A stretch of DNA of 64,000 bases from an uncultured Bifidobacteriaceae bacterium (lineage in GTDB: Bacteria; Verrucomicrobiota; Verrucomicrobiia; Limisphaerales; UBA11358): positions 1,238 through 65,237 of the forward strand of contig CAYPSF010000001.1 of assembly GCA_964413165.1 (NCBI GenBank), written 5' to 3'. Positions within the stretch are counted from its first letter, which is position 1, and every line of letters begins with the position of its first letter. This document shows, in pieces, positions 2,217 to 63,938 of this stretch. The notes under the pieces are model-generated. The model did not search any database, had not been told where the DNA came from, and saw only the letters and a list, made by a program, of their open reading frames with translations. The translations under genes were made by a program, and so were the position numbers.

Positions 2217-2332
2217 CCCCAGCACCAAAAAAACTCCAAACCCCAAACCCCAGGAACGCATTCGGGGTTCGTCGCCATTTCGAATTTGGCGCTTGGTGCT
2301 TATTTGGAGTTTGGTCATTGGGTTTTGGGGTT
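2217..2332. repeat. Intergenic imperfect hairpin element built of 7-bp-periodic units (CCAAACC type)
   Basis: Left arm ...caccaaaaaaactccaaaccccaaaccccagg. Right arm gcttggtgcttatttggagtttggtcattgggttttggggtt. The arms are mutually complementary (caccaa/ttggtg, actccaaa/tttggagt, ccaaaccccaaaccc/gggttttgggg). It fills the gap between two operon genes. Confidence 0.7.
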
Positions 2333-2336
2333 ATAT

Positions 2337-3746
2337 TCAAACGCACCAGAAGCGCGGGTCTTTTTGCCGGTAAAAAAGGTTGTACGCGCAGGCCGGAATC
2401 AGGCGGCCTTCCGGATCCGGCACCTGGTCCGGGCAGGCCACCAGCCGCGCCAGATCGAGCGTGTCCTCGTCCATGTGCGAATGGATGTAAACCGCCAGGA
2501 GTGATTCTTCGGCGACCGCCTGTCGTGCCGCCCGGGTCAGTGCCTGCCCCTGGGGATACATCCGTTCCACCAATCCGCGGATGGCCGGCAGGAGTTTTGA
2601 ATCATCGCCGGCTGCCCACAGCCGGTCGATGGCCGCCCGGAAAACTTCCTGGCTGTCATCCTCCGGTTGCAGGAGATAACCCTGTCCCAGCATCTGCCGC
2701 AGTTCCGCCACGGTGAGAAAATCCGTCAGAGACCGGTACGCACCGTTGTCCTTGAGATAATACGCGACGCTGTAACAGAGCGGATGCGCCCCGGCATGCG
2801 GGAAAAAGTGGGCCGCACCCATGGCGCCCCCGGTGGCGGATTCGATCGCCTTCACCGCGCCGTCCAGCGGCATGGTTTCCCGCGGCCGGAAATTTTTCCC
2901 ACCCTGGCCGGTAAAGGTCATCGTCTGAATGGTCACACTGCGCACCACCGGGTGGGCCCGGGCCAGTTCAATGACCCGTCCGATCTCGTCTTCGTTAACT
3001 CCCCGAATCATCACGTTGAGCAAAGTCGTGCCGATGCCGAAGCGTTGCAGGTTTTCCAGCGCCCGGTGTTTCAGACCCACCACATCCTTGCCGTAAATTT
3101 TCAATGCCCGGTCGGCCTGAAACGTGTCGAAGGAAAGAATCACATAAACCCCGAGGTCGGCCAGCGCCCGGCACAAATCTTCGTTGGTCGCCAGTCGCAG
3201 GCCGTTGGAGTTCATGGTCACGCGCCCGATTTCCGGCCGGCGGCATTCCCGCAACAGCTCCACGATCTGCGGATGCATGGTCGGCTCCCCGCCCGTGATG
3301 TTCATCAGGTCAAACGGACCGGCGCGGGCGATGAGTTTGTCGAGCAACGATCGCAGTTCCTCGCGCGTCATGAAATATTTCCGGTCCGGCCGGTTGTAAG
3401 TGAAGCAAATCGGACAATCCAGGTTGCACGCGTTGGTCACCGAAAACACCGGCAGATGGCAGGCATTGGCGTGGAAGCTGCAGGGACCGCAATCGTGCGG
3501 ACAACCCCGATGAACTTCGCCTCCCGGCAGCCGGGCCGGTTTGCAACGCACCGTCGTGGCCACGCGGTCCAGGTACCATTCCACCCCGTCGGCAATCCGC
3601 ACCCGGCTTGTCCCGCATTTCGGGCACAGCCGTTCCTGATAAACCGCGCCACCTTTCTCCAGAATCCGCGCGGGAAGCAGGGCGCGACATTCCCGGCACA
3701 TGCCGCGCACGGTTCCCAGGTAAGTGTAGGATCGGGAAGGCCTCAT
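2337..3746 (-). CDS. Radical SAM enzyme with N-terminal zinc-ribbon (COG1964/MJ0619/Tes-like architecture), paralog 2
   Basis: 469 aa. Motifs: C17xxC20...C41xxC44 ribbon, GCPHDCGPCSFHANAC cluster, CNLDCPIC radical SAM motif, GGEPT, and C-terminal ACPDQ...IPACAYN. It is colinear with the 225..1610 product. Confidence 0.85.
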   Translation of the reverse strand: MRPSRSYTYLGTVRGMCRECRALLPARILEKGGAVYQERLCPKCGTSRVRIADGVEWYLDRVATTVRCKPARLPGGEVHRGCPHDCGPCSFHANACHLPVFSVTNACNLDCPICFTYNRPDRKYFMTREELRSLLDKLIARAGPFDLMNITGGEPTMHPQIVELLRECRRPEIGRVTMNSNGLRLATNEDLCRALADLGVYVILSFDTFQADRALKIYGKDVVGLKHRALENLQRFGIGTTLLNVMIRGVNEDEIGRVIELARAHPVVRSVTIQTMTFTGQGGKNFRPRETMPLDGAVKAIESATGGAMGAAHFFPHAGAHPLCYSVAYYLKDNGAYRSLTDFLTVAELRQMLGQGYLLQPEDDSQEVFRAAIDRLWAAGDDSKLLPAIRGLVERMYPQGQALTRAARQAVAEESLLAVYIHSHMDEDTLDLARLVACPDQVPDPEGRLIPACAYNLFYRQKDPRFWCV

Positions 3747-21878: not shown

Positions 21879-22891
21879 GCGTCAGGGTTTTCGGGGCTCG
21901 GGTCCGGGCGGCTTCCTGATTTGGCCAGGAACACCGAAAGCAAAACCAGTTCCACGCTGCCAAAGGCGATTTTGGCAGAGTAGGGAATGACCGGCTCGTG
22001 ATATTGCGAGAGAAACGCCTCCACGAATCCCGCCCAGACCAGCAGCACGCCGACGCCAAAAATCAGCGTGACGACATCGCCCGAGATTTCGCGCAGCCGC
22101 GTCCGCAGCGAGGCGCGGCTGCCCCGGCCGATGAGCGCCCGCGCCAGCATCAGGCCGGCCTGGCCGGCGATGAGGATGGCCGGGATTTCCACCACGCCGT
22201 GTGGCATCAGCCAGCCCAGGAGAAATTTGAGCTGTCCGTCGGCGATGTAATCGACCGAAATCGCGCCGAGGATGACTCCGTTGTAAAACAGCATAAAGAT
22301 GGTGCCGACGCCCCAGGTCATGCCGAGGGCGAGGGTGAAGACGGACACCTTGATGTTGTGCGTCATCAGATAAGCCGAGAACGAAGACCGATGTCCCGCC
22401 AGGCGGTTTTCCGTGCGGCTCTCCTCCTGTTCGACCCGTTCGCGAGGTCGCAGCTGGTCATGGCCGAAGGGCATGGTGACGTGGCGCGAGTCCGGATCGA
22501 AGGTGGTGGCCAGTCCGCCGAACGCACAGCCGGCCAGCGTGATGGCGACGGAGAGGTAAAAGGCCCGGACGTGGCGGCGGAAGGTGCGGGGGAGCGTCTG
22601 AAAAAACCATTGCAGCGGAAAAATCCGGCGTTGTTGAGCCCGCGTTTCGTGAATTTCCCCGTAGGAACGCGCCACCAGGTTTTCCAGGTACCGGCGCGTC
22701 TCCGGTTCCGAGGACAACGTGGTGATTTTGGCCAGATCGGCGGCCGTGCGTTCGTAAAGCTGATGAAAGAGCTGCAACTGCGGGAGGGTCATCCGCAGGT
22801 CCGGCTCCGCTTCCAGCCGGTCCAGCATCCGTTCGAGTTCGGTCCAGAAAGGCCGCCCGGTGGCAATAAAGCGTTGTAAATCAACAATCAC
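21875..22891 (-). CDS. SpoIIM-like (DUF95) integral membrane protein
   Basis: VSVFTLALGMTWGVGTIFMLFYNGVILGA...LMPHGVVEIPAILIAGQAG signature. I chose the GTG start forming a GTGA overlap with the DUF58 stop. The ORF track extends to 23020. Confidence 0.7.
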   Translation of the reverse strand: MIVDLQRFIATGRPFWTELERMLDRLEAEPDLRMTLPQLQLFHQLYERTAADLAKITTLSSEPETRRYLENLVARSYGEIHETRAQQRRIFPLQWFFQTLPRTFRRHVRAFYLSVAITLAGCAFGGLATTFDPDSRHVTMPFGHDQLRPRERVEQEESRTENRLAGHRSSFSAYLMTHNIKVSVFTLALGMTWGVGTIFMLFYNGVILGAISVDYIADGQLKFLLGWLMPHGVVEIPAILIAGQAGLMLARALIGRGSRASLRTRLREISGDVVTLIFGVGVLLVWAGFVEAFLSQYHEPVIPYSAKIAFGSVELVLLSVFLAKSGSRPDPSPENPDA

Positions 22892-24279
22892 AACAACTGC
22901 CTTTGTTTTACGCTCAAATATTGCGAAACCAGTTCGGCGCTCAAACGCTCGTGGCTGAGCAGTGAGAACCGCACCCCGCGCCGCTGCAGGACCTTCTGCA
23001 GCTCGCGCAGCTTGTGCCACTGCAAATGGCCGCCGAGCTGGCCGTACAAATCATCCAGGCCGGCAACCGCGGGATCCGTGAAGAGCGGCTTCACGCCCGG
23101 CATGGGCAGCATGTTCACCAGCACCAGGTGCTGCCGCCGGATCAAATCCAGGTTGCGGACAAAACTTTCCGCCAGCGCCGGGTCGTCCAGCGCCGTCAGG
23201 AAAACCAGCAGGGCGCGCCGCCGCAACCGCAACCGGATGAACGTGCACAATTCATCAAAATCCGGCGTGGCGATTTTGGGTTCGAGGGTATAAAGCGCGT
23301 CGCGGCAGGCGGTGTAATGGGCCTGGCCGTTCTTGGCCCGCACAAATTTTTCCACCCGGTCCGTGAACGTCAGCAATCCGAACAAGTCGCCCTGCTGTTC
23401 CGCCGCCAGCCCGAGCACCAGCGCGGCCGTCACAAACCGCTCTAAAGTGGTTGTCGAGGGTCGAGGGTCGAGGGTCGAGGGCGAAGACTGCTTGTCCGGC
23501 GCCCGCCTTTCGGTTCGCGACTCCCGCCCCGGCATGCGGGCGCTCAAGCGCGAGGCGTCCACGATCACGTAAACCTCCTGCGTCCGTTCGATTTGAAAAA
23601 CCTTCGTGATCGGCTTGCCCCGCCGCGCGGTCGCCTTCCAGTGAATTTCCGTGTAGTCGTCCCCCGGTACGTATTCGCGCAGTTTCTCAAAGTCGCGGCC
23701 CTTGCCCACTTGCCGCTGCGCATGCACGCCAAAGGCGCCCCGGTTCAGGAACAGGGCCGCGAGGTTTTTCCGTTCGTTGAGCAGGTTGGGGTAAACGCGG
23801 ATTTCCGACTGCACCGGGACGGTCTTGCGCACGGCCCAGAAGCCGAGGGGGGACCCGCCTTCAACGTAAGCCGCGTTCAGCCGGTAATTGCCGCGCTGGC
23901 GCGGCGTACAGGGCCAGGTCAGCCGCGACCATTCGCTTTGCGCCGGCAAAAGGGCATCCAGTTCTCCGGACTCGACCTGAATTTCAGGCGGCCAGGCCAG
24001 CGCAACCCTTAAATGGCGCCGGTGCTGCCGTTCATTACGAATCCGCAATTCCAGTTTTGCCGCCCGGTCTTTCGACATGCGCGCGACGGCGGGCAGTTCC
24101 ACGCCGATGCCCGCCAGGCTTTGGCGGGTCCCGAGGGCGTCGGCCAGCACCACCACCAGCAGCCCGCCGATGCACAGCAGGGCAACGCCCGCCGCCGGGG
24201 GAGACACCGCCCCGATCAGCGCGAACGGTAACATCACCGCCGCCACCCAAAACAACAATCTGGTGCGCGGAACGATCAT
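22888..24279 (-). CDS. DUF58-domain protein (MoxR partner)
   Basis: 463 aa. Two N-terminal TM segments. REYVPGDDYTEIHWKATARRGKPITKVF is the DUF58 signature. It contains an internal 4x7-bp tandem repeat. Confidence 0.85.
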   Translation of the reverse strand: MIVPRTRLLFWVAAVMLPFALIGAVSPPAAGVALLCIGGLLVVVLADALGTRQSLAGIGVELPAVARMSKDRAAKLELRIRNERQHRRHLRVALAWPPEIQVESGELDALLPAQSEWSRLTWPCTPRQRGNYRLNAAYVEGGSPLGFWAVRKTVPVQSEIRVYPNLLNERKNLAALFLNRGAFGVHAQRQVGKGRDFEKLREYVPGDDYTEIHWKATARRGKPITKVFQIERTQEVYVIVDASRLSARMPGRESRTERRAPDKQSSPSTLDPRPSTTTLERFVTAALVLGLAAEQQGDLFGLLTFTDRVEKFVRAKNGQAHYTACRDALYTLEPKIATPDFDELCTFIRLRLRRRALLVFLTALDDPALAESFVRNLDLIRRQHLVLVNMLPMPGVKPLFTDPAVAGLDDLYGQLGGHLQWHKLRELQKVLQRRGVRFSLLSHERLSAELVSQYLSVKQRQLL

Positions 24280-25235
24280 CGCGGGACGGCCAGTTGCTGG
24301 AGGATTTGCTGGATGACTTCCGTCACGGTCAGGCCTTCGATTTCAAATTCCGGCCGGAGAATCAACCGGTGCTCCAGCACCGGCGGGGTCATGGTTTTGA
24401 TGTCATCGGGCGTGACAAAATCGCGGCCGGATATGGCGGCATAAGCTCGCGAGGCCATGATGAGCGATTGCGTGGCGCGCGGTCCCGCGCCCACCAGGAC
24501 GCTTTCGTGCTGCCGCGAGGCCCGGACGATGTCCACGAGATACCCGACCAGTTCATCCCGCAGGACGATGGCGGCCAGCCCGTCGCGCAGGGCCGACAGG
24601 TCCGCGGCTTTGATGACCGGCTGGACCACGCCCTGGGCCAGCAGGGTTTCGGGCGCGTCCTTCGTCATCGTGCGCTGGGCGAGTGACAGCTCCTCGGCAC
24701 GGTCCGGCGTTTTCATCGTGATTTTGAGCATGAACCGGTCTTTCTGCGCCTCGGGCAGCGGATAAGTGCCTTCGTATTCAATCGGGTTTTGCGTGGCGAA
24801 CACGGTGAAATTCGGCGACAACGGATGCGTTTCGCGGTCGATGGTCACCGCCCGTTCCTGCATGGCCTGCAGCAGCGCGGATTGCGTCTTGGCTGGGGCG
24901 CGGTTGATTTCATCCGCCAGCAAGAACGAGGTGAAAAGCGGGCCTTTGATGAGCGAGAATTCATTCCGTTGCAGGTTGAAAACGTTGGTGCCGGTAATGT
25001 CGGCGGGCATCAGGTCGGGGGTGAACTGGATGCGGGCGAAATCGGTGCCGAGCACGTGCGCCAGCGTGCGCACGAGCAGGGTTTTGGCGACGCCTGGCAC
25101 GCCTTCAATCAATGCGTGGCTGCCGGTGAAGATGGCGATGAGCGCCTTTTCGATGACGTCGTGCTGGCCGATGATGACCTTGCCGGTTTCTGACCGTGCC
25201 TGCGTGAGCACTTCCTTGAGTCGTTCAGTATTCAT
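24276..25235 (-). CDS. MoxR-like AAA+ ATPase
   Basis: Internal start MNTERLKEVLTQ...IIGQHDVIEKALIAIFTGSHALIEGVPGVAKT (Walker A), LLADEINRAPAKTQSALLQAM (Walker B). The long Arg/Gly/Pro-rich N-extension in the ORF track (to 25694) was rejected. Confidence 0.9.
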   Translation of the reverse strand: MNTERLKEVLTQARSETGKVIIGQHDVIEKALIAIFTGSHALIEGVPGVAKTLLVRTLAHVLGTDFARIQFTPDLMPADITGTNVFNLQRNEFSLIKGPLFTSFLLADEINRAPAKTQSALLQAMQERAVTIDRETHPLSPNFTVFATQNPIEYEGTYPLPEAQKDRFMLKITMKTPDRAEELSLAQRTMTKDAPETLLAQGVVQPVIKAADLSALRDGLAAIVLRDELVGYLVDIVRASRQHESVLVGAGPRATQSLIMASRAYAAISGRDFVTPDDIKTMTPPVLEHRLILRPEFEIEGLTVTEVIQQILQQLAVPR

Positions 25236-26491
25236 GATTTTGGTGGTGAGTTGCGGGTTCCCAGAACGGAGCAGATTTGTTTGTAGGTTTCCACCGGCTG
25301 CCGGTCTTTCGGCGGCCGGGAAGCTTCCGCCGCCCAAATGGCCTCGGCCTGCTGGACCCGGGCGCTGGCCGGCCGGGCGTGGAACCCCGCGGATTTTTTC
25401 CATTGGGCAAAACAGGTGCCGAGCAGATCGCGCGGGGCGATGCTGCGCCGCAGCAGATTGATGAACCCCGAGGCCGCGTCTTTTCCGGCCACATAGATTC
25501 GTTGTTCCCGGTCCCTGTGCGGCGGCGCGAGACTCAGGGAATTTTTCCAGATGAACAATCCGGCCAGCAGAATCAGACCCGCCAACAGTCCGTGCAAGCG
25601 GTATTGGCGCATCAACGCCGCCACTCCGGGGGTTTCCAGGACGCCCAGGTGCCCCTCGTCGAACACGACGTTCGGGTTGGGGCCGACGAGCCACGCCAGC
25701 AAATCCGGGTGCCGGTCCCTGGCCATCGCCTCGTTGCTGACAAAATAGGAATCCGTGGCGAAGATGATCGAGCCCATGCCGAACCGGCGTTCGATAACCA
25801 CCGCGTTGGTGTCGCGCGCATAAATCACGCGCCAGGCGCCGTCCAGGTTGATGAAAACAGTGCCGCTATGCCACTCGAGGGTCCGTGGCAGCGGCAGATC
25901 CGTCCGGTTCACCACCGGCACCGGCACGTAAACATCGCCGGCCTGCGCCAGCTTTTGGAAATCCGTGTGCAGCCCCCAGCGTTCATCCAGCCGGACCTCC
26001 TCGTCGTCCGCCTTTTTTTTCCTTTTCTTCGCCGGTTTTTCCGGCGTCATTTTTTCTTTCTTCGCCCTGGACTGCGCCGATTTCACCGAATTGGTTTCGT
26101 CGTCGTCTTCATCGTGAAACGCATACGATTCGGTTTGCGGGAAAAAGGTGACGACCAGCCGGCCGCCGCGGCCCAGAAACCCCTCAATCTCCCCGTACAG
26201 ATCCTTGGGCATCCGCTGCCATTCGTAGCGGGACGCGGCGAGGTGCAGATAAACCGTATGCGGCTCCTCCGGCAGGCGGTTGGCGACGCTGAAATCGCGG
26301 CGGGCGGATACCCCCGGCACCTTGCCGAGGCTTTCGTAAAACACCATTGTGCCGAGCGGGTCGGAACGCAAAGACGAGTAAGCCGGATAAACATCGCCCA
26401 CCTCGAACCGGAGCTGGAACAGCTCGACTAGGCCCAGAACCAGCGCGGCGGCGCACCCCAGCAGGAGCAGGATGGGAAAATATTTTTTCAT
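25232..26491 (-). CDS. DUF4350-like membrane-anchored protein with acidic/basic insert
   Basis: 419 aa. N-terminal TM segment. ...VVFDEGHLGV... and a C-terminal TM segment are typical of DUF4350 members of MoxR operons. It has a charged insert DEDDDETN...KKRKKKADDEE. Confidence 0.6.
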   Translation of the reverse strand: MKKYFPILLLLGCAAALVLGLVELFQLRFEVGDVYPAYSSLRSDPLGTMVFYESLGKVPGVSARRDFSVANRLPEEPHTVYLHLAASRYEWQRMPKDLYGEIEGFLGRGGRLVVTFFPQTESYAFHDEDDDETNSVKSAQSRAKKEKMTPEKPAKKRKKKADDEEVRLDERWGLHTDFQKLAQAGDVYVPVPVVNRTDLPLPRTLEWHSGTVFINLDGAWRVIYARDTNAVVIERRFGMGSIIFATDSYFVSNEAMARDRHPDLLAWLVGPNPNVVFDEGHLGVLETPGVAALMRQYRLHGLLAGLILLAGLFIWKNSLSLAPPHRDREQRIYVAGKDAASGFINLLRRSIAPRDLLGTCFAQWKKSAGFHARPASARVQQAEAIWAAEASRPPKDRQPVETYKQICSVLGTRNSPPKS

Positions 26492-28194
26492 CCTGCGTCT
26501 TTCAGTCTATCCACGTTGGCCGCGAACCGGTCCACCAGCCCGCGGCTGACCTCGTGGGTGCCGTACCAGACGCACTCAAACGACAGGAGGTTTTCGCCAA
26601 AAACCGGCAGCAAGCCGGGAAACGCATGTCCCCGCCGGCGCAATTCACGTTCGTAATCGCGGTTGGATTTGAAGCGCGCGATGCTGATCAGGTTGCGCGC
26701 GGCCAGATGGGAAAGGCTGGCGAGGTAAAACGCGCGCATCGCCAGGCGGAACTCGCCGCGTTCGAGCAGCTCGCGGCCCAGTTTCGTCCAGCCGTCCTCG
26801 GGCAACTGGTCGGCCCGCACATTTTCATCGGCCAGGTCCGGCAAGGACCGGACCGGCTCGCTGGCAACGGTGGCGCGCGACGGCCGATCGCGCCAGGTGC
26901 GATAAAGCAAGATCGCGAGCGCGGCCAACACTGCCGCCCCCAGCCCGTAAAGCAGGATTTGCAGCGTCAGGATCCAGCCGTATCCGTCGGATCCTGAGGC
27001 GGAATCAATCCGCCGATGGGGAAACAGCTTCCGCCACCATTTGTCCAGCCAGTCGGAAAACGACCGGGCCCATTGGCGCAGCATTTTGCCAGCCTTGGCG
27101 AAGAAGCGCGTGATGGCACTGTCGCCGGCGTCCGATTCCGCGATCTTTTCGCGGGGCATCCGCCAGGCGTACTTGTTTTCGTGGATGGTCTGGTTGATGG
27201 CGCGGTCCAGATCCGTCGCGGAGACCCCCGGGGAAGCCGGGGCCGGAACCGGCGCCCCGGACGGGGGCACGGCAGGTGGCGGCGCATCGGCGGCCCGGGC
27301 GGGCGAAGCGCAAACCAGACCCAGCAGCAACACCAGCAGGATCGCCGGGGCCGGCGGAGAAGCGGCAAAGGAATTCAGTTCGGCTCGCAAATCCTCGCCG
27401 GATTCCAGCGCCTCGCCGTAAAAACAGCGCAGGACAAAAATGGCTTTCAGGATCGGGTCCACGCACAGGTAGGTCAGGCCGGCCATCCCGGCAAAAAACG
27501 TCGTGTTCAACAGGCTGAGCGGATCCCGGGTGAAAACCGATTCGACGCCGGACAACATTTTGATCAATTGCGGCACGAACAGGCCAACGGTGACCCAATT
27601 CAGGAAAACATAAAGGCCAAACCCCGTCATGATGAGGAGCAGGATGATATTTTGCCGCGGCCAGAGCCGCCAGAGCCGCCACGCCTTCCGCAGGATCGCT
27701 TTCGTATCGGCCGACTGGCCGTCGGTCAGCGCGGTTACATTCTGGAAAAAGGCGAGCAGCCAGGCAATCACGGGTGCCAATACCAGCGCCAGCGGGAGGA
27801 AGACATAGGCCCCCAGTGCCAGGACCGCCAGCGGCACCAGTCCCCAGGACTGCAGGAAAGACTGCAGGACGATCACGCGCCCGCAGCGGCGGACATTCCA
27901 GTGCGGCACCGGCTCGGCGGCGAGGTGCGCCCGCAACCGCCGCGCAAAAATGACCTGCCAGAATTTCATCCAGATAAACAATCCGGCCAGGCCCAGAGCG
28001 GAATCGGCCAGATGCTGGTCCGCGAATGGGTTGCGGCTCATGTCCGCCCAGAAATACAGCAGTCCCAGCACAAACGGGACGGCCCCCAGATAATAAACCG
28101 CCAGGGTGGCGGCCGGCGCGGTGCGCAACCCATGGGTAGCTTCTTCGATCAGATCGAAGGCGCCTTTGCCCGGTTGCCGGTGCGCGGGTTTCAT
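26488..28194 (-). CDS. Polytopic membrane protein with C-terminal DUF4129-like domain
   Basis: 568 aa. Multiple TM helices. The C-terminus FRLAMRAFYLASLSHLAARNLISIARFKSNRDYEREL is DUF4129-like. Confidence 0.6.
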   Translation of the reverse strand: MKPAHRQPGKGAFDLIEEATHGLRTAPAATLAVYYLGAVPFVLGLLYFWADMSRNPFADQHLADSALGLAGLFIWMKFWQVIFARRLRAHLAAEPVPHWNVRRCGRVIVLQSFLQSWGLVPLAVLALGAYVFLPLALVLAPVIAWLLAFFQNVTALTDGQSADTKAILRKAWRLWRLWPRQNIILLLIMTGFGLYVFLNWVTVGLFVPQLIKMLSGVESVFTRDPLSLLNTTFFAGMAGLTYLCVDPILKAIFVLRCFYGEALESGEDLRAELNSFAASPPAPAILLVLLLGLVCASPARAADAPPPAVPPSGAPVPAPASPGVSATDLDRAINQTIHENKYAWRMPREKIAESDAGDSAITRFFAKAGKMLRQWARSFSDWLDKWWRKLFPHRRIDSASGSDGYGWILTLQILLYGLGAAVLAALAILLYRTWRDRPSRATVASEPVRSLPDLADENVRADQLPEDGWTKLGRELLERGEFRLAMRAFYLASLSHLAARNLISIARFKSNRDYERELRRRGHAFPGLLPVFGENLLSFECVWYGTHEVSRGLVDRFAANVDRLKDAG

Positions 28195-28205
28195 TTATGA
28201 ATTCG

Positions 28206-28297
28206 GGAAACAACCAACAACCAACAGCGAACATCCAATAAACGCGAAGGTCCGACCATTGGATGTTGAGCGTTGGATGTTCGATGTTCGATGTTCA
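28206..28297. repeat. Intergenic hairpin element with 7-bp-periodic arms (CAACAAC / GTTGGAT type)
   Basis: Left arm aaacaaccaacaaccaacagcgaacatccaat. Right arm attggatgttgagcgttggatgttcgatgttcgatgttca. The right arm ends on the stop codon of the upstream gene. Confidence 0.7.
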
Positions 28298-28621
28298 TTC
28301 TTGATCCACCCAGTTGACCTGCCAGAGGGTCTTTTCGTGGAACGAAGTCGGCAGTTTCGTCAGGCTGTCGCCGATGAGAAAAAAGAAAAACCAGGCGATG
28401 AGGAGGCCGAACACGCACTGAACGAGGCGCAACAGGCGCACGAACGCCGGCCGCCGGGTGACCGGCCGGCGCGCCAATTTTTTCAGGCAGGCGGCGCAGA
28501 CGACCCGGTCGTCGTGCTCCGTGATGCATTCGCGGCAGAAACACTGGCCGCACTCCGGGCACTGCGCCACGGCTTCACGGGCGGCATGGTTGAAACAGCG
28601 CTGCTGGGCCAGATTTTGCAT
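28295..28621 (-). CDS. Small B-box-type zinc-finger protein with C-terminal TM anchor
   Basis: 108 aa. CFNHAAREAVAQCPECGQCFCRECITEHDDRVVCAACL, followed by the hydrophobic stretch LLRLVQCVFGLLIAWFFFFLI. Confidence 0.6.
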   Translation of the reverse strand: MQNLAQQRCFNHAAREAVAQCPECGQCFCRECITEHDDRVVCAACLKKLARRPVTRRPAFVRLLRLVQCVFGLLIAWFFFFLIGDSLTKLPTSFHEKTLWQVNWVDQE

Positions 28622-47114: not shown

Positions 47115-48065
47115 GTGAAATTCCTGGTTACCGGTGGCACCGGATTCATCGGCTGGCGCGTGGTGCGCAACTTGTTGCAGCGGAAAATACCCGTTGTGGC
47201 CGGCGAACTGAACCCCGACTCCGGTATCCTGGCCCGGCTGCCGGGCGCGGAACTGGCCACCCTCGACGTGTCGGACGCGAATTCGGTCAAAGCCGTTTTT
47301 CAAAAGCACCCGGACATCACGCACGCCATCCATCTGGCCTACCTGATGAGCGCGGAGGTGGAGGCCAACCCGCATCTCGGCGCGAGCGTGAACGTCCTGG
47401 GCATGATCAACCTCTTCGACGCCGCCGTCCGCCAGAAACTGGCGCGGCTGGTCTTCACCAGCAGCGAGACGTATTACGGCGCGTCCCAAAAGCCCTACGG
47501 CGACCGCGACGTGACCGAGGATGATTTTACCGGCCCGGCCAACCATTTTTTCACCTACGGCATGATGAAAGTGCTGAACGAGTTCACGGCGCAAAAGTAC
47601 GTCAAGAAACACGGCGTCAGCATCGCCTGCACCCGGCCGCCGGTCGTGTTCGGCCATGGCCGCAAACGCGGCTCGGTCCTGTGGGCGGAGGACTTCGCCA
47701 CCCTGCCGGCGCAGGGCAAGCCGGTCACCCTGCCGTTCCCGGCGCACACGCGCGATTGCTGGATTTACGTGGACGATTGCGCGGAACAGCTTGTGAGCCT
47801 GGCGCTGAAGCCGCAGATCGCCCATTTCGCCTACAACAACGGAGGTGAATCCGTCACCGCGGCGGAATTCGCCGCCCTCGTCCGCCACTGGCTGCCGGAG
47901 GCGCAAATTTCCTTCGATGAATCCAAACCCACCACGCCGCTGATTGACCGGATGGACAGCCGGCGATTGGACCAGGAGATCAATTTCAAACCGCGCCCGC
48001 TCAGCGAGGGCGTGCATGCGCACATCAACGAAGCCCGCCTCGCCGCGGGACTGAAGCCAGTTTAG
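47115..48065 (+). CDS. NAD-dependent epimerase/dehydratase (extended SDR)
   Basis: VKFLVTGGTGFIGWRVV Rossmann motif at the chosen GTG start (ORF track starts at 47064). YGMMK is the YxxxK motif. Confidence 0.85.
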   Translation: MKFLVTGGTGFIGWRVVRNLLQRKIPVVAGELNPDSGILARLPGAELATLDVSDANSVKAVFQKHPDITHAIHLAYLMSAEVEANPHLGASVNVLGMINLFDAAVRQKLARLVFTSSETYYGASQKPYGDRDVTEDDFTGPANHFFTYGMMKVLNEFTAQKYVKKHGVSIACTRPPVVFGHGRKRGSVLWAEDFATLPAQGKPVTLPFPAHTRDCWIYVDDCAEQLVSLALKPQIAHFAYNNGGESVTAAEFAALVRHWLPEAQISFDESKPTTPLIDRMDSRRLDQEINFKPRPLSEGVHAHINEARLAAGLKPV

Positions 48066-48071
48066 AAATGA

Positions 48072-48180
48072 AAAAACATTCAACATTCAACATCGAACAT
48101 CCAATGAAGAAAATTGGGAGACAGGGACGCGATCGGCGTGACGTTGGATTGAAGGTTGGGCGTTGAATGTTGGATGTTTC
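48072..48180. repeat. Intergenic hairpin element with 7-bp-periodic arms (AACATTC type)
   Basis: Left arm aacattc aacattc aacatcg aacatcc aat. Right arm ttggatt gaaggtt gggcgtt gaatgtt ggatgtt. The arms are reverse-complementary with mismatches, separated by a ~38-nt spacer. Confidence 0.8.
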
Positions 48181-48196
48181 CGAAAAACCTATTGTT

Positions 48197-49183
48197 ATGA
48201 CCAGATTCCGCAACACCGTCGTTGGCAGTTATCCCCGGCCCGGCAAGGTCGAGGATACGCTCAAGAAACCCACGCTGAACCAGGCCGAGGTGGATGAACT
48301 CATCCGCTGGGCCGCCAAAGACCAGGCCGACCTCGGGCTCGACGTCATCACCGACGGCGAGGGTTACCGCGAGAACATGTATTATTTCTACCAGAAGAGG
48401 CTCGACGGCGTTTCGATGGAGAACATGGTGAAGAAAACCTTCGGCACGGCCGGGTTCGGCATCGAATGCGCGCGGGTGGTGGGCGAAATCAAAAACCCGC
48501 GCTGCAACCTGGCGCACAACTGGAAAATCGCCCGCGCCGCGGCGCCGAAAAACGTCGCCGTCAAGCAAACCGTAACCGGCCCGCACGTGCTGACCCGGTT
48601 CAGCGTGAACGAGCGTCCCGATTTATATCCCGATGAACAATCATTGTGCCGTGCCTACGCGAAAATCCTCGCCGAGGAACTGCGCGCGGTCATCGCCGCC
48701 GGCTGCGAATTCATCCAATTCGACGAGCCGATGTGGACCGAGGCGCCGGAACAGAGCGAATGGGCAGCGGGCATCCTCAATGAGCTGATCGAATCACTGC
48801 CCAAGGTGCGGGTCGGGCTGCACGTCTGCGGCGGGAATCCGCGGCGCAAGCGGGTTTACTTCACCAAATACACCGACCTGGTTCCAGCGTTCACCAGGGC
48901 GAAGATCGACGAGGTATCGCTCGAGCACTGCACGTTGAGCTACAACCTGATGGATTTGTGGCCGCTCTGGAAGTTCAAGGGCGACCTCGCCCTCGGCGTG
49001 ATTGACCAGCGCAGCGACGGCATCGAAACGACCGAGGTCATCCGGAAACGGGTCGAGCCGGCGCTGAAACATTTTCCGCGCGAACGGCTGGTGCTGACCA
49101 GCGAATGCGGCTTCGGCCATGTGCCGCTCGATATTACCCGTGCCAAATTGAAAGCCCTGGTGGCGGCGTGCCAGTCGTTATGA
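48197..49183 (+). CDS. MetE-C-terminal-domain-like (cobalamin-independent methionine synthase family) protein
   Basis: MTRFRNTVVGSYPRP, DVITDGE, LHVCGGN (His-x-Cys) and LTSECGFGH are Zn-site-like motifs. The ORF-track start at 48167 lies inside the hairpin arm, so I preferred the internal start. Confidence 0.75.
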   Translation: MTRFRNTVVGSYPRPGKVEDTLKKPTLNQAEVDELIRWAAKDQADLGLDVITDGEGYRENMYYFYQKRLDGVSMENMVKKTFGTAGFGIECARVVGEIKNPRCNLAHNWKIARAAAPKNVAVKQTVTGPHVLTRFSVNERPDLYPDEQSLCRAYAKILAEELRAVIAAGCEFIQFDEPMWTEAPEQSEWAAGILNELIESLPKVRVGLHVCGGNPRRKRVYFTKYTDLVPAFTRAKIDEVSLEHCTLSYNLMDLWPLWKFKGDLALGVIDQRSDGIETTEVIRKRVEPALKHFPRERLVLTSECGFGHVPLDITRAKLKALVAACQSL

Positions 49184-49189
49184 TTTTCC

Positions 49190-49290
49190 AAAACATTCAA
49201 CATTCAACATTCAGCGCTCAACGCTCAATCAGCGTTCATTCGGCTCACCCCTGGACATTGAATGTTGAATGTTGGGCGTTAAATGTTTCC
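49190..49290. repeat. Intergenic hairpin element with 7-bp-periodic arms (AACATTC type)
   Basis: Left arm aacattc aacattc aacattc agcgctc aacgctc aat. Right arm ggacattg aatgttg aatgttg ggcgtta aatgttt. Confidence 0.8.
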
Positions 49291-49298
49291 TTTCCATT

Positions 49299-50441
49299 AT
49301 GAAACCACTCGAAGGCCTTCTCGTTCTGGATTTCGCCCAGTTTCTCGCCGGGCCCAGCGCGGCCATGCGCCTGGCCGACCTCGGCGCGCGCGTCATCAAG
49401 ATCGAACGGCCGGGCGCCGGTGAACTGGGCCGGAAGCTCTACATTTCCAACCTGGAACTCGACGGCGACAGCACGCTCTTCCATTCCATCAATCGGAACA
49501 AGCAGAGCTTTGCTGCGGACCTGAAAAATCCGGATGACTTCGCCGACGTCCGCCGGCTTGTCGAACGCGCCGATGTGCTCATCCAGAATTTCCGGCCCGG
49601 GGTCATGGAAAAAATCGGGATGCATTATGACGCGGTGAAAAACTGGAATCCAAAGCTGGTTTACGCCTCCATCACCGGTTACGGCCGGGAAGGCCCGTGG
49701 CGCGACAAGCCTGGACAGGATTTGCTGGCGCAATCCATCTCCGGCCTGGCGTGGTTGAGCGGTGACGCGACCCAGGGACCGGTGCCGATGGGGTTGTCGG
49801 TCGCAGACATGTTCACGGCGGCGCATTGTGTGCAGGGGATCCTCGCCTGCCTGGTCCGGCGGGGCGTCACCGGCCAGGGCGGATTGATCGAAGTCAGCCT
49901 GATGGAATCGGTTATCGACCTGCAGTTCGAGGTGGTGACCACGCACCTGAACGACGGCGGCAAACTGCCCCAACGCAGCGCGGTCAACAACGGCCATGCC
50001 TACCTCGGCGCGCCTTACGGCATCTACCAGACCGGCGACGGTTATCTGGCGGTGGCGATGGGCTCGGTCGTCCGGCTGGGTGAATTGCTGGGCTGCCAGC
50101 CGTTGACAGCTTACCTCGACCCGAAAACCTGGTTTACCAAACGCGATGAAATCAAAGCCGAGCTGGCCCGGCATTTGAAAACGCAGACCACAGCCCACTG
50201 GCTGGCGATTCTGGAGCCGGCGGACATCTGGTGCGCCGACGTGTTGACCTGGCCACGATTGATGGCTCATGGGGGATTCCGCGTGCTCAACCTGATCCAA
50301 AAAGTCAGCCGCGCAAACGGCGCGAGCCTGGAAACAACGCGTTGCCCCATCCGCGTGGACGGGAAAATCCTGACTTCGTCCCTCGGTGCTCCCAAGGTCG
50401 GTGAACACAACGCGGTGGTACGGGAGGAGTTTCTTTTATGA
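49299..50441 (+). CDS. Family III (CaiB/BaiF-type) CoA-transferase
   Basis: [38 protein letters not shown] is the canonical N-terminus. The ORF-track start at 49269 lies in the hairpin arm. Confidence 0.9.
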
Positions 50442-57072: not shown

Positions 57073-57260
57073 GCCGTTCAGCGGACGTTCATCTCTCCAA
57101 GGTTTCATGATGGTGTTTGAATCTTATAAACCACGCAAACCAACACAAAACCAAACCACGTGCTGCGGCTGAGACAGCCATGCTCCGCCTTTGGAAGTTG
57201 ACGCCGGGAATGCCTGAGAGCAAATGTTGTCGGGTAAATTCAACCAAAAGGAGTCCGATT

Positions 57261-59712: not shown

Positions 59713-60770
59713 CCATCCGCACGCGGCTCACCTTCTGGTATGCCGGCATTCTGACCGCGTCGCTGCTGGTGATCGGTTTTGGCACCTACCGGGAGATTGA
59801 CGAGCGGTTGCGCCACGAACATCACCGGGAACCGGAGGAGCACGCCCTGGCCGAGGCGGGGGAGATGATTTTTCAGGTGGGCCTGCCCGCCATTGTGCTG
59901 GGGCTGCTCGGCGGCTGGTGGCTGACCCGCCGGGCGCTCGCGCCGATGACTAAGCTGACGGACGCCGTGGAAAAAATCCACGAACGCAATCTGCGCGAAC
60001 CGCTGCCTCGCACGGGCAATAACGATGAACTGGACCGGCTGACCGATGTTTTCAACGGCATGCTGGCGCGGCTCGACGACTCCTTCAACCGCACCCGCGA
60101 GTTCACCCTGCACGCTTCGCACGAGCTCAAGACGCCGCTCACGGTCTTGTGCGGCGAAACCGAGACCGCCCTGCGCGATGACTCGCTGGCGCCCGCCGAA
60201 CGCGAACGCGCGGCCAGCCTGCTCGACGAATTGCGCCGGCTGACCCGCATCGTGGACGGTCTCGCGCTGCTGGCCAAGGCTGACGCGGGCCAGGTCGCGC
60301 TGAAGCTGGAACCGATGCGGTTCGACGAGTTGGTGCGTGACAATTTCGCCGATGCGCAAATCCTGGCCGAACCGCACGGCATCCGGGTGGAACTGACCGC
60401 CTGCGAGGAAATCACCGTGCGCGGTGACCGCCATCGTTTACGCCAGTTGTTGCTGAACCTCGCGGATAACGCCGTCAAATATAACCAGCTGCGGGGCTGG
60501 GTGACGATGAGCTTGCGCCGGGCGGGCGACGCGGCTGAATTGACCATCGCCAACAGCGGGCCGGGGATTCCGCCAGAAATTTTGCCGCGGGTATTTGACC
60601 GGTTCTATCGCGGCGACCCGGCTCACAGCCAGGCGGTGGATGGCTGCGGCCTGGGTCTAAGCATCGTGCAATGGATTGTTTCCGCACACAAAGGAAGCGT
60701 CAAAATCGAATCGATGCCCGGGATAAGCACCACGGTCACAGTCCGCCTGCCGCTGGGCGCAAATAGATGA
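59709..60770 (+). CDS. Sensor histidine kinase (heavy-metal type) with minimal His-rich extracytoplasmic loop
   Basis: 353 aa. Two TM segments flank a ~30-aa loop, followed by a HAMP-like region, H-box HASHELKTPLT, and N/G boxes NAVKYN and GLGLSIV. It overlaps the response regulator gene by 4 bp. Confidence 0.9.
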   Translation: MTIRTRLTFWYAGILTASLLVIGFGTYREIDERLRHEHHREPEEHALAEAGEMIFQVGLPAIVLGLLGGWWLTRRALAPMTKLTDAVEKIHERNLREPLPRTGNNDELDRLTDVFNGMLARLDDSFNRTREFTLHASHELKTPLTVLCGETETALRDDSLAPAERERAASLLDELRRLTRIVDGLALLAKADAGQVALKLEPMRFDELVRDNFADAQILAEPHGIRVELTACEEITVRGDRHRLRQLLLNLADNAVKYNQLRGWVTMSLRRAGDAAELTIANSGPGIPPEILPRVFDRFYRGDPAHSQAVDGCGLGLSIVQWIVSAHKGSVKIESMPGISTTVTVRLPLGANR

Positions 60771-60873
60771 AACATTCAACATCCAACATCCAACAACAAA
60801 CATCCAATTCCGAAAGGACGAAACATTTGGAATTCGTTGGGCGTTGGATGTTGGATGTTCGATGTTGGATGTT
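60771..60873. repeat. Intergenic hairpin element with 7-bp-periodic arms (AACATCC type)
   Basis: Left arm aacattc aacatcc aacatcc aacaaca aacatcc aattcc. Right arm ggaattc gttgggc gttggat gttggat gttcgat gttggat gtt. Confidence 0.8.
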
Positions 60874-62299
60874 CCTTGCCCCAATTCTTGTCATTACCGG
60901 TTGCGCCCGGTTCCAGCCGCAGCCGGTCTTGCCGGAACAAACCGCGGCACAACTGGAGGCCCGGCGACTCGACGATGCCGGCCTCCAGAAATTCCTCGAA
61001 AAAAACCTCGGCCATGATCTGCCCGGCTGGCCGCTGTCCGAATGGGACCTGAATTCACTCACGCTGGCCGCGTTTTATTTCCATCCCGACCTGGACGTGG
61101 CCCGGGCGCAATGGCGGCTGGCTGAGGCGGGTGTCAAAACCGCCGGCGCACGGCCGAATCCGTCGGTGACCGTAACGCCCGCCTATGACAATCAGATTCC
61201 CGGTACCCCGAGCCCATGGATTTTGCCGGTGACCGTCGACTTGCCAATCGAGACCGCTGGCAAACGCGCCAAACGTATCGCCGAGGCGCGGGATGTCTCC
61301 GAATCCGCCTGGTGGGGGCTCATCACGGCTGCCTGGCAGATCCGCAGCGGGGTCCGCGCCGGTCTGTTGGATTTCACCGTCGCCCAACAGCGTGCGGATT
61401 TGCTCGCGAAGCAACTGTCGACGCAGGAGCAAATCGTGAAATCGCTGCTACAACGCTATGATGCCGGCGAAATTTCCCGCCCGGACCTCGCCAGGGCACA
61501 AATCGCCCTGAGCAAGACCCGACTGGACGCAAGTGACGCGCAAACCACGCTCGCCAACGCCCGTTCGGAGCTGGCCGAAGCGCTCGGGGTCGGCGCCGCC
61601 GCCCTGGATGGAATGAATCTGGCGTTTGATTTTTCCGCCCGCGCGCCCGACGACCTCACCTCGCGGGCGGCGCGGCGAGTCGCCTTGCTGGGGCGTTCGG
61701 ATATTCGCAGCGCTTTGGCCGACTACGCGGCGGCCCAGGACGACCTGCGGTTGCAAGTCGCCAAACAATATCCGGACCTGCATCTGGGACCCGGTTACGC
61801 CTGGAATTCCGGCAACAACGCCGACAATGAATGGAGTCTGGGCCTGACCCTGGAGCTGCCGATCCTCGACCAAAACCAGGGGCCGATTGCCGAGGCCAGG
61901 GCGCGGCGGGAATTGGTTGCCGCGCAATTTACCGCCCTGCAGGCAAAAGTTATTGGTGAAATTGACCGGGCCGTGGCGGGTTACCATGTGGCAGCGGAAC
62001 AATTGAAAACCGGCGAGACGTTGCTGGCCGCTGAACGGCAACAGGAACAATCCACTGAGGCCCAGCAAAAGGCCGGCGCCGCCGACCGGCTCGATCTGCT
62101 CAGCGCGCAGGTCGAATTCGAGACGGCGGCGCTGGCGCACCTCGACGGCCAGGTAAAATATCAAACGGCGCTCGGCACGTTGGAAGCCGCCTTGCAACGT
62201 CCCGCGGATGCCCTGTCGGTAACAGCCAATGCCAGCATCCTGACGAACATCGTCCGGCAGCCGTTTCCGACTTCCCCAGCCCAGGAGCACAAACCATGA
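60869..62299 (+). CDS. Outer-membrane efflux lipoprotein (TolC/CzcC family)
   Basis: Chosen start MFLAPILVITGCARF (lipobox). Two OEP-type repeats. The ORF-track start at 60767 would translate the hairpin repeat (HSTSNIQQQTSN...). Confidence 0.85.
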   Translation: MFLAPILVITGCARFQPQPVLPEQTAAQLEARRLDDAGLQKFLEKNLGHDLPGWPLSEWDLNSLTLAAFYFHPDLDVARAQWRLAEAGVKTAGARPNPSVTVTPAYDNQIPGTPSPWILPVTVDLPIETAGKRAKRIAEARDVSESAWWGLITAAWQIRSGVRAGLLDFTVAQQRADLLAKQLSTQEQIVKSLLQRYDAGEISRPDLARAQIALSKTRLDASDAQTTLANARSELAEALGVGAAALDGMNLAFDFSARAPDDLTSRAARRVALLGRSDIRSALADYAAAQDDLRLQVAKQYPDLHLGPGYAWNSGNNADNEWSLGLTLELPILDQNQGPIAEARARRELVAAQFTALQAKVIGEIDRAVAGYHVAAEQLKTGETLLAAERQQEQSTEAQQKAGAADRLDLLSAQVEFETAALAHLDGQVKYQTALGTLEAALQRPADALSVTANASILTNIVRQPFPTSPAQEHKP

Positions 62300-63382: not shown

Positions 63383-63425
63383 TCCCTCTCCCCTCAACGG
63401 GGAGAGGGTTGGGGCGAGGGGTGAG
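63383..63425. repeat. Terminal inverted repeat, left copy (itself a 10-bp-stem hairpin)
   Basis: tccctctcccctcaacggggagagggttggggcgaggggtgag. Its reverse complement matches 63896..63938 at 41 of 43 positions. Confidence 0.85.
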
Positions 63426-63843
63426 CCGGCGATTGATCATTCGCTTTCTTCAAATGCGTCGGCAGCCTCACTCGTTTCTCCGGTTGCACATTTCCCGAAT
63501 GTGGCGCGCGTGTTTGCAGGTCGTTCCAGATTGTTTCGTGCACCCAGCGAACGTCTTTCAGTTGTGAATTCCAAAAACGCCGTGTTTCAATATTACGCGT
63601 CTTCAAATAATCGTCGCGTGCGGCATCTTTTGCCTGTGGTCCGGGAAATCCGTGCTGACCGCCGTCCAGTTCGAGGTTGTAACGCGCCTCGGCACAAAAC
63701 AAATCAAGGAAATGTTTGCCGACCTGATGCTGGCGGCGGAATTTGTAAGCCGAGAACCTCCGGTCGCGGAGAATTGCCCACAATTTTTTCTCCGCCCAAG
63801 TGGATTTCCTGCGGAGGAGGCGGGGAATTTGCGAGGAATTCAT
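63394..63843 (-). CDS. DUF559 (Vsr/PD-(D/E)xK-like) endonuclease-domain protein
   Basis: 149 aa. EKKLWAILRDRRFSAYKFRRQHQVGKHFLDLFCAEARYNLELDGGQH...D..RD.YL is the DUF559 signature. The C-terminal AHPSPQPSPR is encoded by the left TIR. Confidence 0.8.
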   Translation of the reverse strand: MNSSQIPRLLRRKSTWAEKKLWAILRDRRFSAYKFRRQHQVGKHFLDLFCAEARYNLELDGGQHGFPGPQAKDAARDDYLKTRNIETRRFWNSQLKDVRWVHETIWNDLQTRAPHSGNVQPEKRVRLPTHLKKANDQSPAHPSPQPSPR

Positions 63844-63895
63844 TGCCGATGGGTGTAGTCGGGGAGATTGGGTGGTTCAAGCGGTATTTTGCATT

Positions 63896-63938
63896 CTCAC
63901 CCCTCGCCCTGACCCTCTCCCCGTTGAGGGGAGAGGGA
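63896..63938. repeat. Terminal inverted repeat, right copy
   Basis: ctcacccctcgccctgaccctctccccgttgaggggagaggga. Confidence 0.85.

Follow-up and report, generated by a model that had tools for sequence, protein, structure and literature searches.

Intercistronic hairpins with tandem-heptad arms in a Verrucomicrobiota contig: candidate ORF-less miniatures of a PF05635 gene cassette

Introduction

Why do five gene junctions within a single bacterial contig carry a hairpin of ~100 bp whose arms are built of tandem 7-nt units? The stretch in question, referred to here as the window, comprises 64,000 nt of an uncultured bacterium that is filed under Bifidobacteriaceae and placed by GTDB in the Verrucomicrobiota (assembly GCA_964413165.1, contig CAYPSF010000001.1, positions 1,238 to 65,237). 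A preliminary description made from its letters placed five such elements, here E1 to E5, in the window, and all five were located there by sequence reading (Table 1). In each, a C/A-rich arm of tandem heptads is followed by a unique spacer and by complementary G/T-rich heptads. This architecture is as first described, while the accompanying counts (4–6 heptamers per arm and a spacer of 20–40 nt) did not hold, with 3–5 clear units and spacers of 24–48 nt being found instead.

Heptamer repeats are the most abundant long simple sequence repeats (SSRs) of bacteria. The four-helix-bundle family PF05635 is very large and includes the structures 2GSC and 2RLD, and to our knowledge no function has been assigned to it outside diversity-generating retroelements (DGRs). 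Both have been open puzzles for about 20–30 years and have been treated separately; they are tied together here by the finding of heptad arrays as the arms of gene-carrying cassettes, which are sited inside essential operons (ftsA–ftsZ and accB–accC) and would have left hundreds of gene-less hairpins like the five of the window. The link makes pentamer–heptad binding, RNase III excision from mRNAs, and cassette movement testable.

The reading favored in the following—with somewhat better than even confidence in the whole of it, mechanism included—is that E2–E5 are miniature copies of a PF05635 insertion cassette that lack the open reading frame (ORF), and E1 is probably such an ORF-less miniature as well.

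A Gene Cassette With the Same Arms

The genomic and metagenome loci compared are labeled with L-numbers. In one metagenome-assembled genome (MAG) of the Verrucomicrobiota (L052), arms of AACATYS units enclose a 372-nt ORF, the ATG of which is that of the AATG ending the left arm, and the product of which matches the TIGR02436 four helix bundle protein (3e-21) and the PF05635 23S rRNA-intervening sequence protein (S23p; 1e-11). A search of all fetched loci returned two further PF05635 genes (L012 and L118), both abutting seeded arrays, with the reverse arm order in L118 (Bacteroidota). In L012 a full cassette lies beside a short hairpin whose loop retains the leader sequence of the gene. This composite (424–985) reads as left arm, leader, four-helix-bundle gene, second left arm with the start of the leader (AATGGTGAATGA...), short loop, and right arm; it may capture a stage in the origin of an ORF-less hairpin, or represent a tandem insertion.

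Homologues were also sampled by protein similarity alone, to remove seeding bias. The gene was found between oppD/oppF-like oligopeptide-ABC ATPase genes in Luteolibacter yonseiensis (L204) and in L206, and between ftsA and ftsZ in the Verrucomicrobiota loci L205, L207, and L208; at all of these sites (AAC N4)x5 ends at the start codon and (N4 GTT)x5 follows the stop. The Xanthomonas gene of the XCC0516 type, located between accB and accC, is preceded by GGGAATC GGGAGTG GAGAATC GGGAATC and followed by the exact mirror of this array, which shows inverted GGGAATC arrays as the brackets of this gene at the accB–accC junction. AATTGAC arrays and their inverse surround the gene in Bacteroides, Bacteroidaceae, and Anaerolineae, where the neighbors are aldolase/araA, aminotransferase/DAHP synthase, and hsdS/hsdR, and viral contigs showed AATTCGT arrays in one case, AATTGAA in another, and none in a third. 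In a Victivallales MAG (L097, 250–330, minus strand), the PF05635 gene is followed by TAACTGA TAACCAA TAACTGA TAACCTA TAACTTT TAACCAA up to the next ATG, with no inverse array upstream of the gene. Altogether, inverted heptad arrays were observed on both sides of 13 of 15 distinct PF05635 genes from various phyla, with one gene having an array on one side and one having none, and the gene is co-directional with both neighbors at each of the nine sites where neighbors were called. Heptad type co-varies with protein lineage (AACATCG, GGGAATC, AATTGAC, and AATTCGT). In Xanthomonas citri (L212–L214, 2335–3381), for which the X. campestris locus L209 served as comparison, the accB–accC copy is frameshifted, with the four-helix-bundle gene divided between two frames, of which one is fused to that of accB, and with the GGGAATC arms retained.

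An nhmmer profile built from seven foreign cassette arms matched, in the entire 64-kb window, only the eight arms of E2–E5, with E values per arm pair of 4e-5 and 8e-3 for E3, 4.5e-4 and 0.06 for E4, 1.8e-6 and 5e-3 for E5, and 2.9e-8 and 1.1 for E2. Furthermore, the cassettes carry the same outer end, ATGAAC, as E2, E3, and E5, the left arm ends on its inner side with AATG, and the first nine nucleotides of the E3 loop, ATGAAGAAA, coincide exactly with the opening three codons of the genes in L206 and L012 (the loop as a whole opens with AATGAAGAAA). Judged from these sequence matches, the arms of E2–E5 very probably belong to the family of the four-helix-bundle gene cassette, and, because a profile of foreign cassette arms matches them, E2–E5 are best read as ORF-less derivatives.

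The Five Elements of the Window

Every unit in E1–E5 can be written as AAC plus four nucleotides, namely ATTC, ATCC, ATCG, AACC, GCCC, or GCTC, together with CCCA or TCCA in E1. The initial impression of a variable unit with a constant 7-nt period and hairpin symmetry proved to reflect a genuine family. For E1 and E3, Tandem Repeats Finder reported a period-7 array in the left arm, and for E2, E4, and E5 in each of the two arms; an inverted-repeat finder placed these arms first by length among the close inverted repeats of the window (31–37 nt, 77–84% complementary). With up to one mismatch allowed, AACATYSAACATY occurs 16 times in the window against 0.49 expected, with all 16 occurrences within E2–E5. 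The G+C content of the elements is 41–51%, versus 60% for the window. E1 is placed in the family, as a probable member, only by its architecture and its AAC+4 phase.

The flanking genes are co-directional at all five elements, as had been stated, and the upstream stop lies 0–15 nt from the stem, where ~10 bp had been given. Cassettes and miniatures alike occupy tight junctions of co-directional genes, where they are located at the upstream stop or no more than a few nucleotides away from it. At E2 and E5, this stop is the TGA of the element's own ATGAAC end, and the outer ends pair as ATGAAC...GTTCAT in E2, E3, and E5.

Table 1. Positions of the heptad hairpins and of the flanked MetE-like gene in the window, with arms and neighboring genes.
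Feature	Position	Strand	Arms and units	Upstream	Downstream
E1, probable divergent member, unit AAACYCC/GGRGTTT	2217-2332	-	~2224-2253 (AAACTCC AAACCCC AAACCCC), 2296-2330; large structured spacer	radical-SAM gene 2337-3746 (-)	hexapeptide-transferase gene 1603-2193 (-)
E2, heptad-array hairpin	28206-28297	-	28209-28238, 28258-28295	unannotated ORF 28295-28621 (-), stop TGA within terminal AATGAAC	DUF4129 gene 26488-28194 (-)
E3, heptad-array hairpin	48072-48180	+	left 48075-48104 (AACATTC AACATTC AACATCG AACATCC), right 48149-48178	NAD-epimerase stop TAG 48063-48065	MetE-like start ATG 48197
MetE-like gene (Meth_synt_2); host gene, no element component	48197-49183	+		E3	E4
E4, heptad-array hairpin	49190-49290	+	left 49192-49226 (clear 49192-49213 + 2 degenerate units), right 49258-49288	MetE-like stop TGA 49181-49183	CoA-transferase III start ATG 49299
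E5, heptad-array hairpin	60771-60873	+	60771-60807, 60837-60873	histidine-kinase stop TGA 60768-60770 (within GATGAAAC)	OEP/TolC-like gene

Insertion Into Operon Junctions

When metagenomes were scanned with the MetE-like protein, 80 loci of 75–96% identity were obtained, among which the presence/absence polymorphism that had been proposed as a check was found at the MetE-like junctions. The closest relatives (93–96% amino acid identity; L124, L125, and L129) have no hairpin at either junction, and the E3 site is empty in these three as well as in L131 and L132. The empty upstream junction consists of the epimerase stop, ~12 nt, and ATG, and the empty downstream junction of TGAcATG, in which the MetE-like stop is followed by the CoA-transferase start, or, in L135, of an ATGA overlap. 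Orthologues of both E3 and E4 are present in L127 and L128, with loop sequence in common with the window and with differing units; between the window and L127, the orthologous copies differ in unit number as well as identity. The upstream insert of L127 is bounded by a duplicated GTTTAA (6 bp, the last codon and stop), which occurs singly in the empty sites. L132 carries the downstream element only, whereas L136 carries both, with AACATCG units and with another element nested in the loop of its downstream hairpin. Other occupants of these junctions are an AAATCCG hairpin (L134), a hairpin of the hexamer AATCTC (L139), and a GC-rich palindrome (L130). Presence and absence are patchy on a neighbor-joining tree of the MetE-like gene, and hairpin density differs from 5 per 64 kb in the window to 0 in ~140 kb of the closest relatives. 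From the abutting or overlapping genes at the empty orthologous junctions, together with the duplication in L127, it follows that the hairpins were inserted into tight operon junctions and that their turnover is high. Compensatory unit insertions and deletions between the window and L127 were considered and dropped, the arms not being in strict mirror register.

The flanking of the MetE-like gene by two copies, emphasized in the preliminary description, is real, but an interpretation as a functional unit is not upheld: the order epimerase/MetE-like/CoA-transferase is kept in relatives without both hairpins and in others with only one, which shows that the bracketing does not make a cassette and represents two separate insertions. 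The same synteny effectively refutes an identity of the hairpins as integron attC sites with the MetE-like gene as the gene cassette, a reading with next to no probability. Their size (57–141 bp for attC), imperfect pairing, and position between co-directional ORFs would fit, as would ATCCAAC/GTTGGAT with the core consensus RYYYAAC/GTTRRRY, but five copies are scattered over 60 kb, the flanking genes that were scanned include no integrase, units such as CGATGTT, GGGAATC, and AATTGAC are off consensus, and each arm has 4–6 contiguous boxes in place of R and L boxes with extrahelical bases.

A palindromic, intergenic, multicopy element of ~100 bp with patchy occurrence among close relatives also recalls repetitive extragenic palindromic (REP) sequences, their REPIN pairs, and MITEs (miniature inverted-repeat transposable elements), which would be moved by a conventional transposase—of the RAYT/Y1 or DDE type—with the four-helix-bundle gene as an irrelevant passenger. 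This is considered quite unlikely. The lineage-limited expansion, the element nested in the L136 loop, and the flanking duplications speak for it, the latter comprising the GTTTAA of L127, a TATGAC at L139, and a 10-bp repeat, CATGAGTGAG, which spans an ATGA stop/start overlap at L053. These duplications, however, vary in length and are overall not above control. No transposase, integrase, RAYT, or reverse transcriptase (RT) was found among the neighbors of those copies and cassettes whose contexts were read, the arms contain no GTAG/CGTC tag and consist of tandem heptads in place of a unique terminal inverted repeat, and the passenger would have to belong to a single gene family across six or more phyla while the heptads differ completely. 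The initial remark that the elements are not typical of a classical REP or bacterial interspersed mosaic element (BIME) family was thereby confirmed, with no such tag and no Y1 transposase among scanned neighbors.

A second small cassette of similar design was observed at 63384–63937 of the window, where a DUF559 endonuclease-like gene (63397–63843, minus strand; PF04480, 1e-24) lies between two inverted modules of 42 bp, CCCTCTCCCCTCAACGGGGAGAGGGTTGGGGCGAGGGGTGAG at 63384–63425 and its inverse at 63897–63937. In L126 and L137, ORF-less GGGAGAGGG hairpins of this DUF559-cassette type precede the MetE-like gene, and one is nested in the loop of L136's downstream heptad hairpin.

Distribution and Constraint of the Heptads

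Further copies, the existence of which had been left as a check, were found as AAC+4 hairpins in the Verrucomicrobiota, Acidobacteriota, Planctomycetota, Desulfobacterota, and others. An exact scan for three AACATYS units, with one genome per species, returned at least 120 loci in many phyla; among the matches listed, the Verrucomicrobiota are most frequent, and about one-third have a complementary array within 200 nt. The common form, as judged by eye, is GGRAAC-(AAC N4)4-6-AAT(G) ... (C)ATT-(N4 GTT)4-6-GTTYCC; it was seen in the Verrucomicrobiota, Acidobacteriota (Acidoferrum and Sulfotelmatobacter), Planctomycetia, and Desulfobacterota, and the reverse arm order in the Thermoanaerobaculia, Gemmatimonadales, and Bacteroidota. 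The AAC arm comes first in all 12 hairpins of the window lineage.

In all fetched DNA, 65 of 73 array-hairpins have a period of 7, and hairpins outside the seed pattern include units such as TAGGTCG, GATTTAC, AACGCGG, and AAATCCG, together with a few 6-, 8-, and 9-mers. In the protein-seeded set, an inverted partner was found for 13 of 41 period-7 arrays and 4 of 30 period-6 arrays, and for almost none of other periods, making 7 the sole period strongly enriched among arrays with inverted partners. Arms are mostly 4–6 units long, with a mode of 5, and direct-only arrays reach 23 units. The AAC columns deviate two to three times less often than the N4 columns (5 deviations versus 33 for the protein-seeded set, 60 versus 157 for non-seed arrays); the constrained part of the heptad is the AAC triplet.

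One Acidoferrum MAG contains three AACATCC hairpins (L028, L087, and L112) with exactly five units per arm and related GC-rich loops of 19–21 nt. They share the left flank AGGCCGGC, and two of the three share the right flank GGTTCAGGGAG; within this MAG, their behavior is that of a genuine dispersed repeat family.

These data bear on the possibility that the heptads are simply long SSRs (LSSRs) made in situ by slippage, paired via, for instance, fold-back or template switching, and retained because a stable hairpin of any kind is tolerated or slightly beneficial at such places, with neither a mobile element nor a dedicated protein being involved, which is regarded as unlikely. Heptanucleotide repeats are indeed the most abundant prokaryotic LSSRs, with slippage proposed as their origin, according to the account of Mrazek (2007) given in citing papers (PMC4679880, PMC4692102). 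Period 7 dominates among short-period arrays at these loci, many of them direct-only. Unit number and identity vary between the window and L127 and among Coxiella strains (PMC4990558), and the arms are just 77–84% complementary, with no strict compensatory change. Slippage would not, however, be expected to confine hairpin arms to 4–6 units while free arrays range widely, to conserve AAC selectively, to keep arm order invariant within a lineage, or to give ATGAAC outer and AATG inner ends in common across phyla. A site is found either without an insert or with one of ~100 bp, intermediate states being absent and at least one site having a target duplication, and neither the PF05635 association at 13 of 15 genes nor the three Acidoferrum copies with common loops and flanks is accounted for in this way.

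Folding and Regulatory Readings

RNA folding of each element was compared with that of 200 dinucleotide shuffles. The minimum free energy was −40.2 for E3 (z −4.45), −31.8 for E4 (z −4.05), −47.6 for E5 (z −6.04), −34.3 for E2 (z −3.15), and −42.1 for E1 (z −2.12), the last being the weakest of the five, with 6 of 200 shuffles folding equally well. The signal above shuffled controls that the preliminary description had called for is thus present throughout (z −2.1 to −6.0), and predicted stems are 28–37 bp long. A search of the whole window against Rfam, also suggested at the outset, gave no hit at gathering thresholds, rRNA included, and a permissive search gave only chance miRNA-hairpin hits with E>1.

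Very stable stems placed directly after stops between co-directional genes, with different hairpin types occupying one junction across relatives (the L130 palindrome included), might also be host regulatory hairpins: Rho-independent terminators or attenuators, 3′-end stabilizers like the malE–malF REP, or operator arrays bound heptad by heptad. HutP reads triplets at 7-nt spacing and the omega repressor reads 7-bp heptads, providing precedents for the last of these. Such a role is nonetheless very unlikely. No promoter or terminator site was called at E3 or E4, there is no U-tract after the stems (the tails being GTTTCCG, GTTTCCT, and GTTCCTT), and there is neither an Rfam family nor a consistent sense-strand wobble bias; the closest relatives lack the hairpin, with their genes overlapping or abutting, and the host genes are functionally unrelated. 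The terminator, one of the functions first suggested, is accordingly not supported; the hairpins are sited in tight operon junctions, which overlap or abut in relatives. Binding by CsrA (GGAUGU) or Hfq (ARN) was rejected, the motifs being absent from many units (CGATGTT, GAATGTT, and GGGCGTT).

Proposed Mechanism

According to the favored reading, a full cassette would consist of ~4–5 heptads, a PF05635/TIGR02436 gene (S23p, a relative of the DGR protein Avd), and the same heptads inverted. Co-oriented with the operon and with no evident promoter of its own, it would be co-transcribed with the host genes. In the RNA, the heptad arms are predicted to pair in an imperfect stem of 28–37 bp, closing off the insert and bringing the host stop and start together, and the stem may be cut by RNase III, by analogy with the intervening sequences (IVSs) of rRNA, so that the insert would be either cut out or insulated at little cost to the host gene. 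The 7-nt period would be a property of the cassette arms and not of the host site, with the AAC (or GTT) of each heptad conserved, the other four bases drifting, and replication slippage adding or removing units. The mode of movement is one that we infer.

Of the functions named at the outset, an RNase site—here for RNase III—and a protein-binding array—here for a pentameric PF05635 protein—appear to be the two live ideas. On the IVS analogy, the chances that the heptad stem is an RNase III substrate seem evenly balanced. Because the heptads vary in sequence from one protein lineage to another, they are probably recognition sites for a protein; that they are read by the ring-shaped pentameric protein of the cassette itself is a tentative prediction, which we would call possible and somewhat unlikely.

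On a broader view, PF05635 genes and ORF-less hairpins may form a single cross-phylum class of mobile intervening cassettes, residing in rRNA helices and at cistron junctions, which at present seems doubtful. Within this class, each subunit of the pentamer might read roughly one heptad, and protein and heptad might co-evolve, an idea held with equally low confidence; and, with no better prospects, binding might control RNase III excision or propagation, possibly through an RNA intermediate and a reverse transcriptase as for Avd in DGRs. If true, this would account for the predominance of 7-nt repeats among the long SSRs of bacteria, and would provide a function for the Xanthomonas GGGAATC repeats, the TAACTGA repeats of Beggiatoa and cyanobacteria, and the short tandemly repeated repetitive (STRR) heptamers.

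Several points weigh against E2–E5 being miniatures of the cassette and against the mechanism outlined. The derivation may have run the other way, with the hairpin as the original element and the gene as a passenger that need not be carried. Neither the window nor ~770 kb of related metagenome loci (L124–L203) yielded a PF05635 gene, so that a trans-acting PF05635 protein in the source genome is at most putative. The cassette-arm profile misses E1, and the loops of the window copies are mutually unrelated, unlike those of a young MITE family. As for insertion, convincing target duplications are limited to a few sites and are of unequal length, and the mean longest flanking direct repeat over all hairpins (4.9 nt) is not longer than in the control (4.7 nt). 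At the RNA level, no consistent sense-strand G-U wobble signature was observed, the ORF-orientation heuristic used for it being unreliable outside the MetE locus, and sense and antisense strands fold about equally, with the antisense as good or better in 6 of 8 hairpins of known orientation; selection on the stem as RNA is thus not demonstrated. Five heptads match five subunits imperfectly, given that Xanthomonas, the source of a crystallized pentamer, prefers four units (PMC4692102). Finally, the S23p ORF in the Coxiella IVS loop is apparently untranslated and decaying (PMC4990558), and the X. citri copy looks to be decaying too, echoing that reductive evolution.

Relation to Known Systems

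The closest parallel is provided by the IVSs of 23S rRNA. That of Coxiella has terminal inverted repeats and is cut by RNase III midway along its stem (Warrier et al., 2016; PMC4990558), and three tandem GACAGAT heptamers, with a copy number that varies between strains, lie just upstream of the S23p ATG (PMC4990558). The Xanthomonas S23p structure is cited as a homopentameric toroid (PMC4990558), and the PDB entries 2GSC and 2RLD contain five chains each. Like the present elements, IVSs have terminal inverted repeats, a long stem, and an optional PF05635 ORF in the loop, occur in short ORF-less forms (~100 nt, Salmonella type) as well as long S23p-encoding forms (Leptospira, Coxiella, and Brucella), and are tolerated, as the window elements would be, since the insert is removed or closed off in the RNA. 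Unlike them, IVSs reside in helix 25 or 45 of 23S rRNA, whereas the window elements lie between protein-coding cistrons and have arms made almost wholly of 4–6 heptads.

The assumption that no repeat family of this kind had been described was half true, since the Xanthomonas GGGAATC pairs (PMC4692102) and the Coxiella IVS heptamers (PMC4990558) were known. Rehm et al. (2015) reported 186 GGGAATC arrays in Xanthomonas with four units preferred, and 70–75 arrays per genome in convergent inverted pairs that are stem-loop-capable and mostly transcribed (PMC4692102). These pairs are enriched between co-directional ORFs, at most 50 bp from the stop, and vary in length between species; they were interpreted in terms of G-quadruplexes, with no function found and no link to S23p made (PMC4692102). 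GGGAATC and the Nostoc GGGGAYT share with the window elements their 7-nt units and inverted pairing, and the window elements fit the definition of such a pair, including aligned ORFs and distance from the stop (PMC4692102), while the Xanthomonas unit differs in being G-rich and G-quadruplex-capable, with the G-rich arm first. The TAACTGA arrays that precede start codons in Beggiatoaceae, cyanobacteria, and Bacteroidetes, for which a translational role was proposed (MacGregor, 2015; PMC4679880), and the cyanobacterial STRR heptamers resemble the elements in being intergenic and near start codons, in having AAC+4 in the unit, and in occurring in unrelated phyla. They differ in that TAACTGA arrays are nearly all direct and were chosen for absent secondary structure (PMC4679880). 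The L097 array that directly follows a PF05635 gene is of this TAACTGA type, as in the Beggiatoaceae heptamer.

With REP, BIME, and REPIN sequences and with hairpin MITEs such as Correia/NEMIS and the enterobacterial repetitive intergenic consensus (ERIC) (for these classes, see PMC3116915 and PMC2229807), the elements have in common that they are dispersed palindromes of ~100 bp, co-transcribed with flanking genes (as predicted for the present ones), of lineage-specific copy number, and patchy from site to site, whereas they have no unique consensus and possess tandem-heptad arms and a four-helix-bundle partner gene. The REP/MITE class affects mRNA stability and processing by RNases III and E. 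Measured against the definition of a MITE, inverted arms are present, duplications occur at some sites (6 bp at L127 and 10 bp at L053), and the partner gene is no known transposase. Avd is a cofactor that binds nucleic acids and RT. PF05635 resembles this DGR protein, a pentameric four-helix-bundle homologue (PMC10053308), but Avd genes lie in loci with RT and template and variable repeats (TR/VR), none of which was present beside the cassettes whose contexts were read.

The ingredients—heptamer SSRs, inverted heptamer pairs, and IVSs with S23p—are known, and the link to a PF05635 cassette is what is added. In the literature, coverage of which was incomplete and gives weak evidence of novelty, no paper was found with the arm 14-mers or with four-helix-bundle genes linked to dispersed heptad hairpins, and the searchable part yielded no description of intercistronic S23p cassettes and their ORF-less miniatures.

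Minor Observations

Two stretches were considered as sixth copies in the window and rejected: a CAAAC-rich one at 57136, which has no folding signal (z +0.86), and a (GTCGAGG)x4 array at 23453, which has no inverted partner. The latter is a perfect (GTCGAGG)x4.1 at 23453–23481, inside a long minus-strand ORF (22888–24279; DUF58) and between its matched domain stretches; the array may be coding, or the ORF may consist of two genes. An 82-nt stretch (24724–24804) within a MoxR-type AAA ATPase gene is 85% identical to L077, probably through mere coding conservation; L077 is labeled Bifidobacteriaceae, and its G+C content of 60% and its heptad hairpin suggest mis-binning.

A tblastn comparison with loci of named MAGs reached no more than 47% identity. 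Between the window and three metagenome contigs that encode an identical MetE-like protein there are 2 single-nucleotide polymorphisms in 2 kb, one of which is within the right arm of E4, at position 49263 (T in the window, G in all three). Finally, the hairpins produce false N-terminal extensions in public annotations, misleading ORF extensions having been noted at the outset: the NCBI protein for the CoA-transferase III (P0377; 390 aa, 49269–50441) starts at an ATG in the right arm of E4 (MLDV...), with a 380-aa form from 49299 likewise being on record, and the ORF at 60767–62299 likewise begins within E5.

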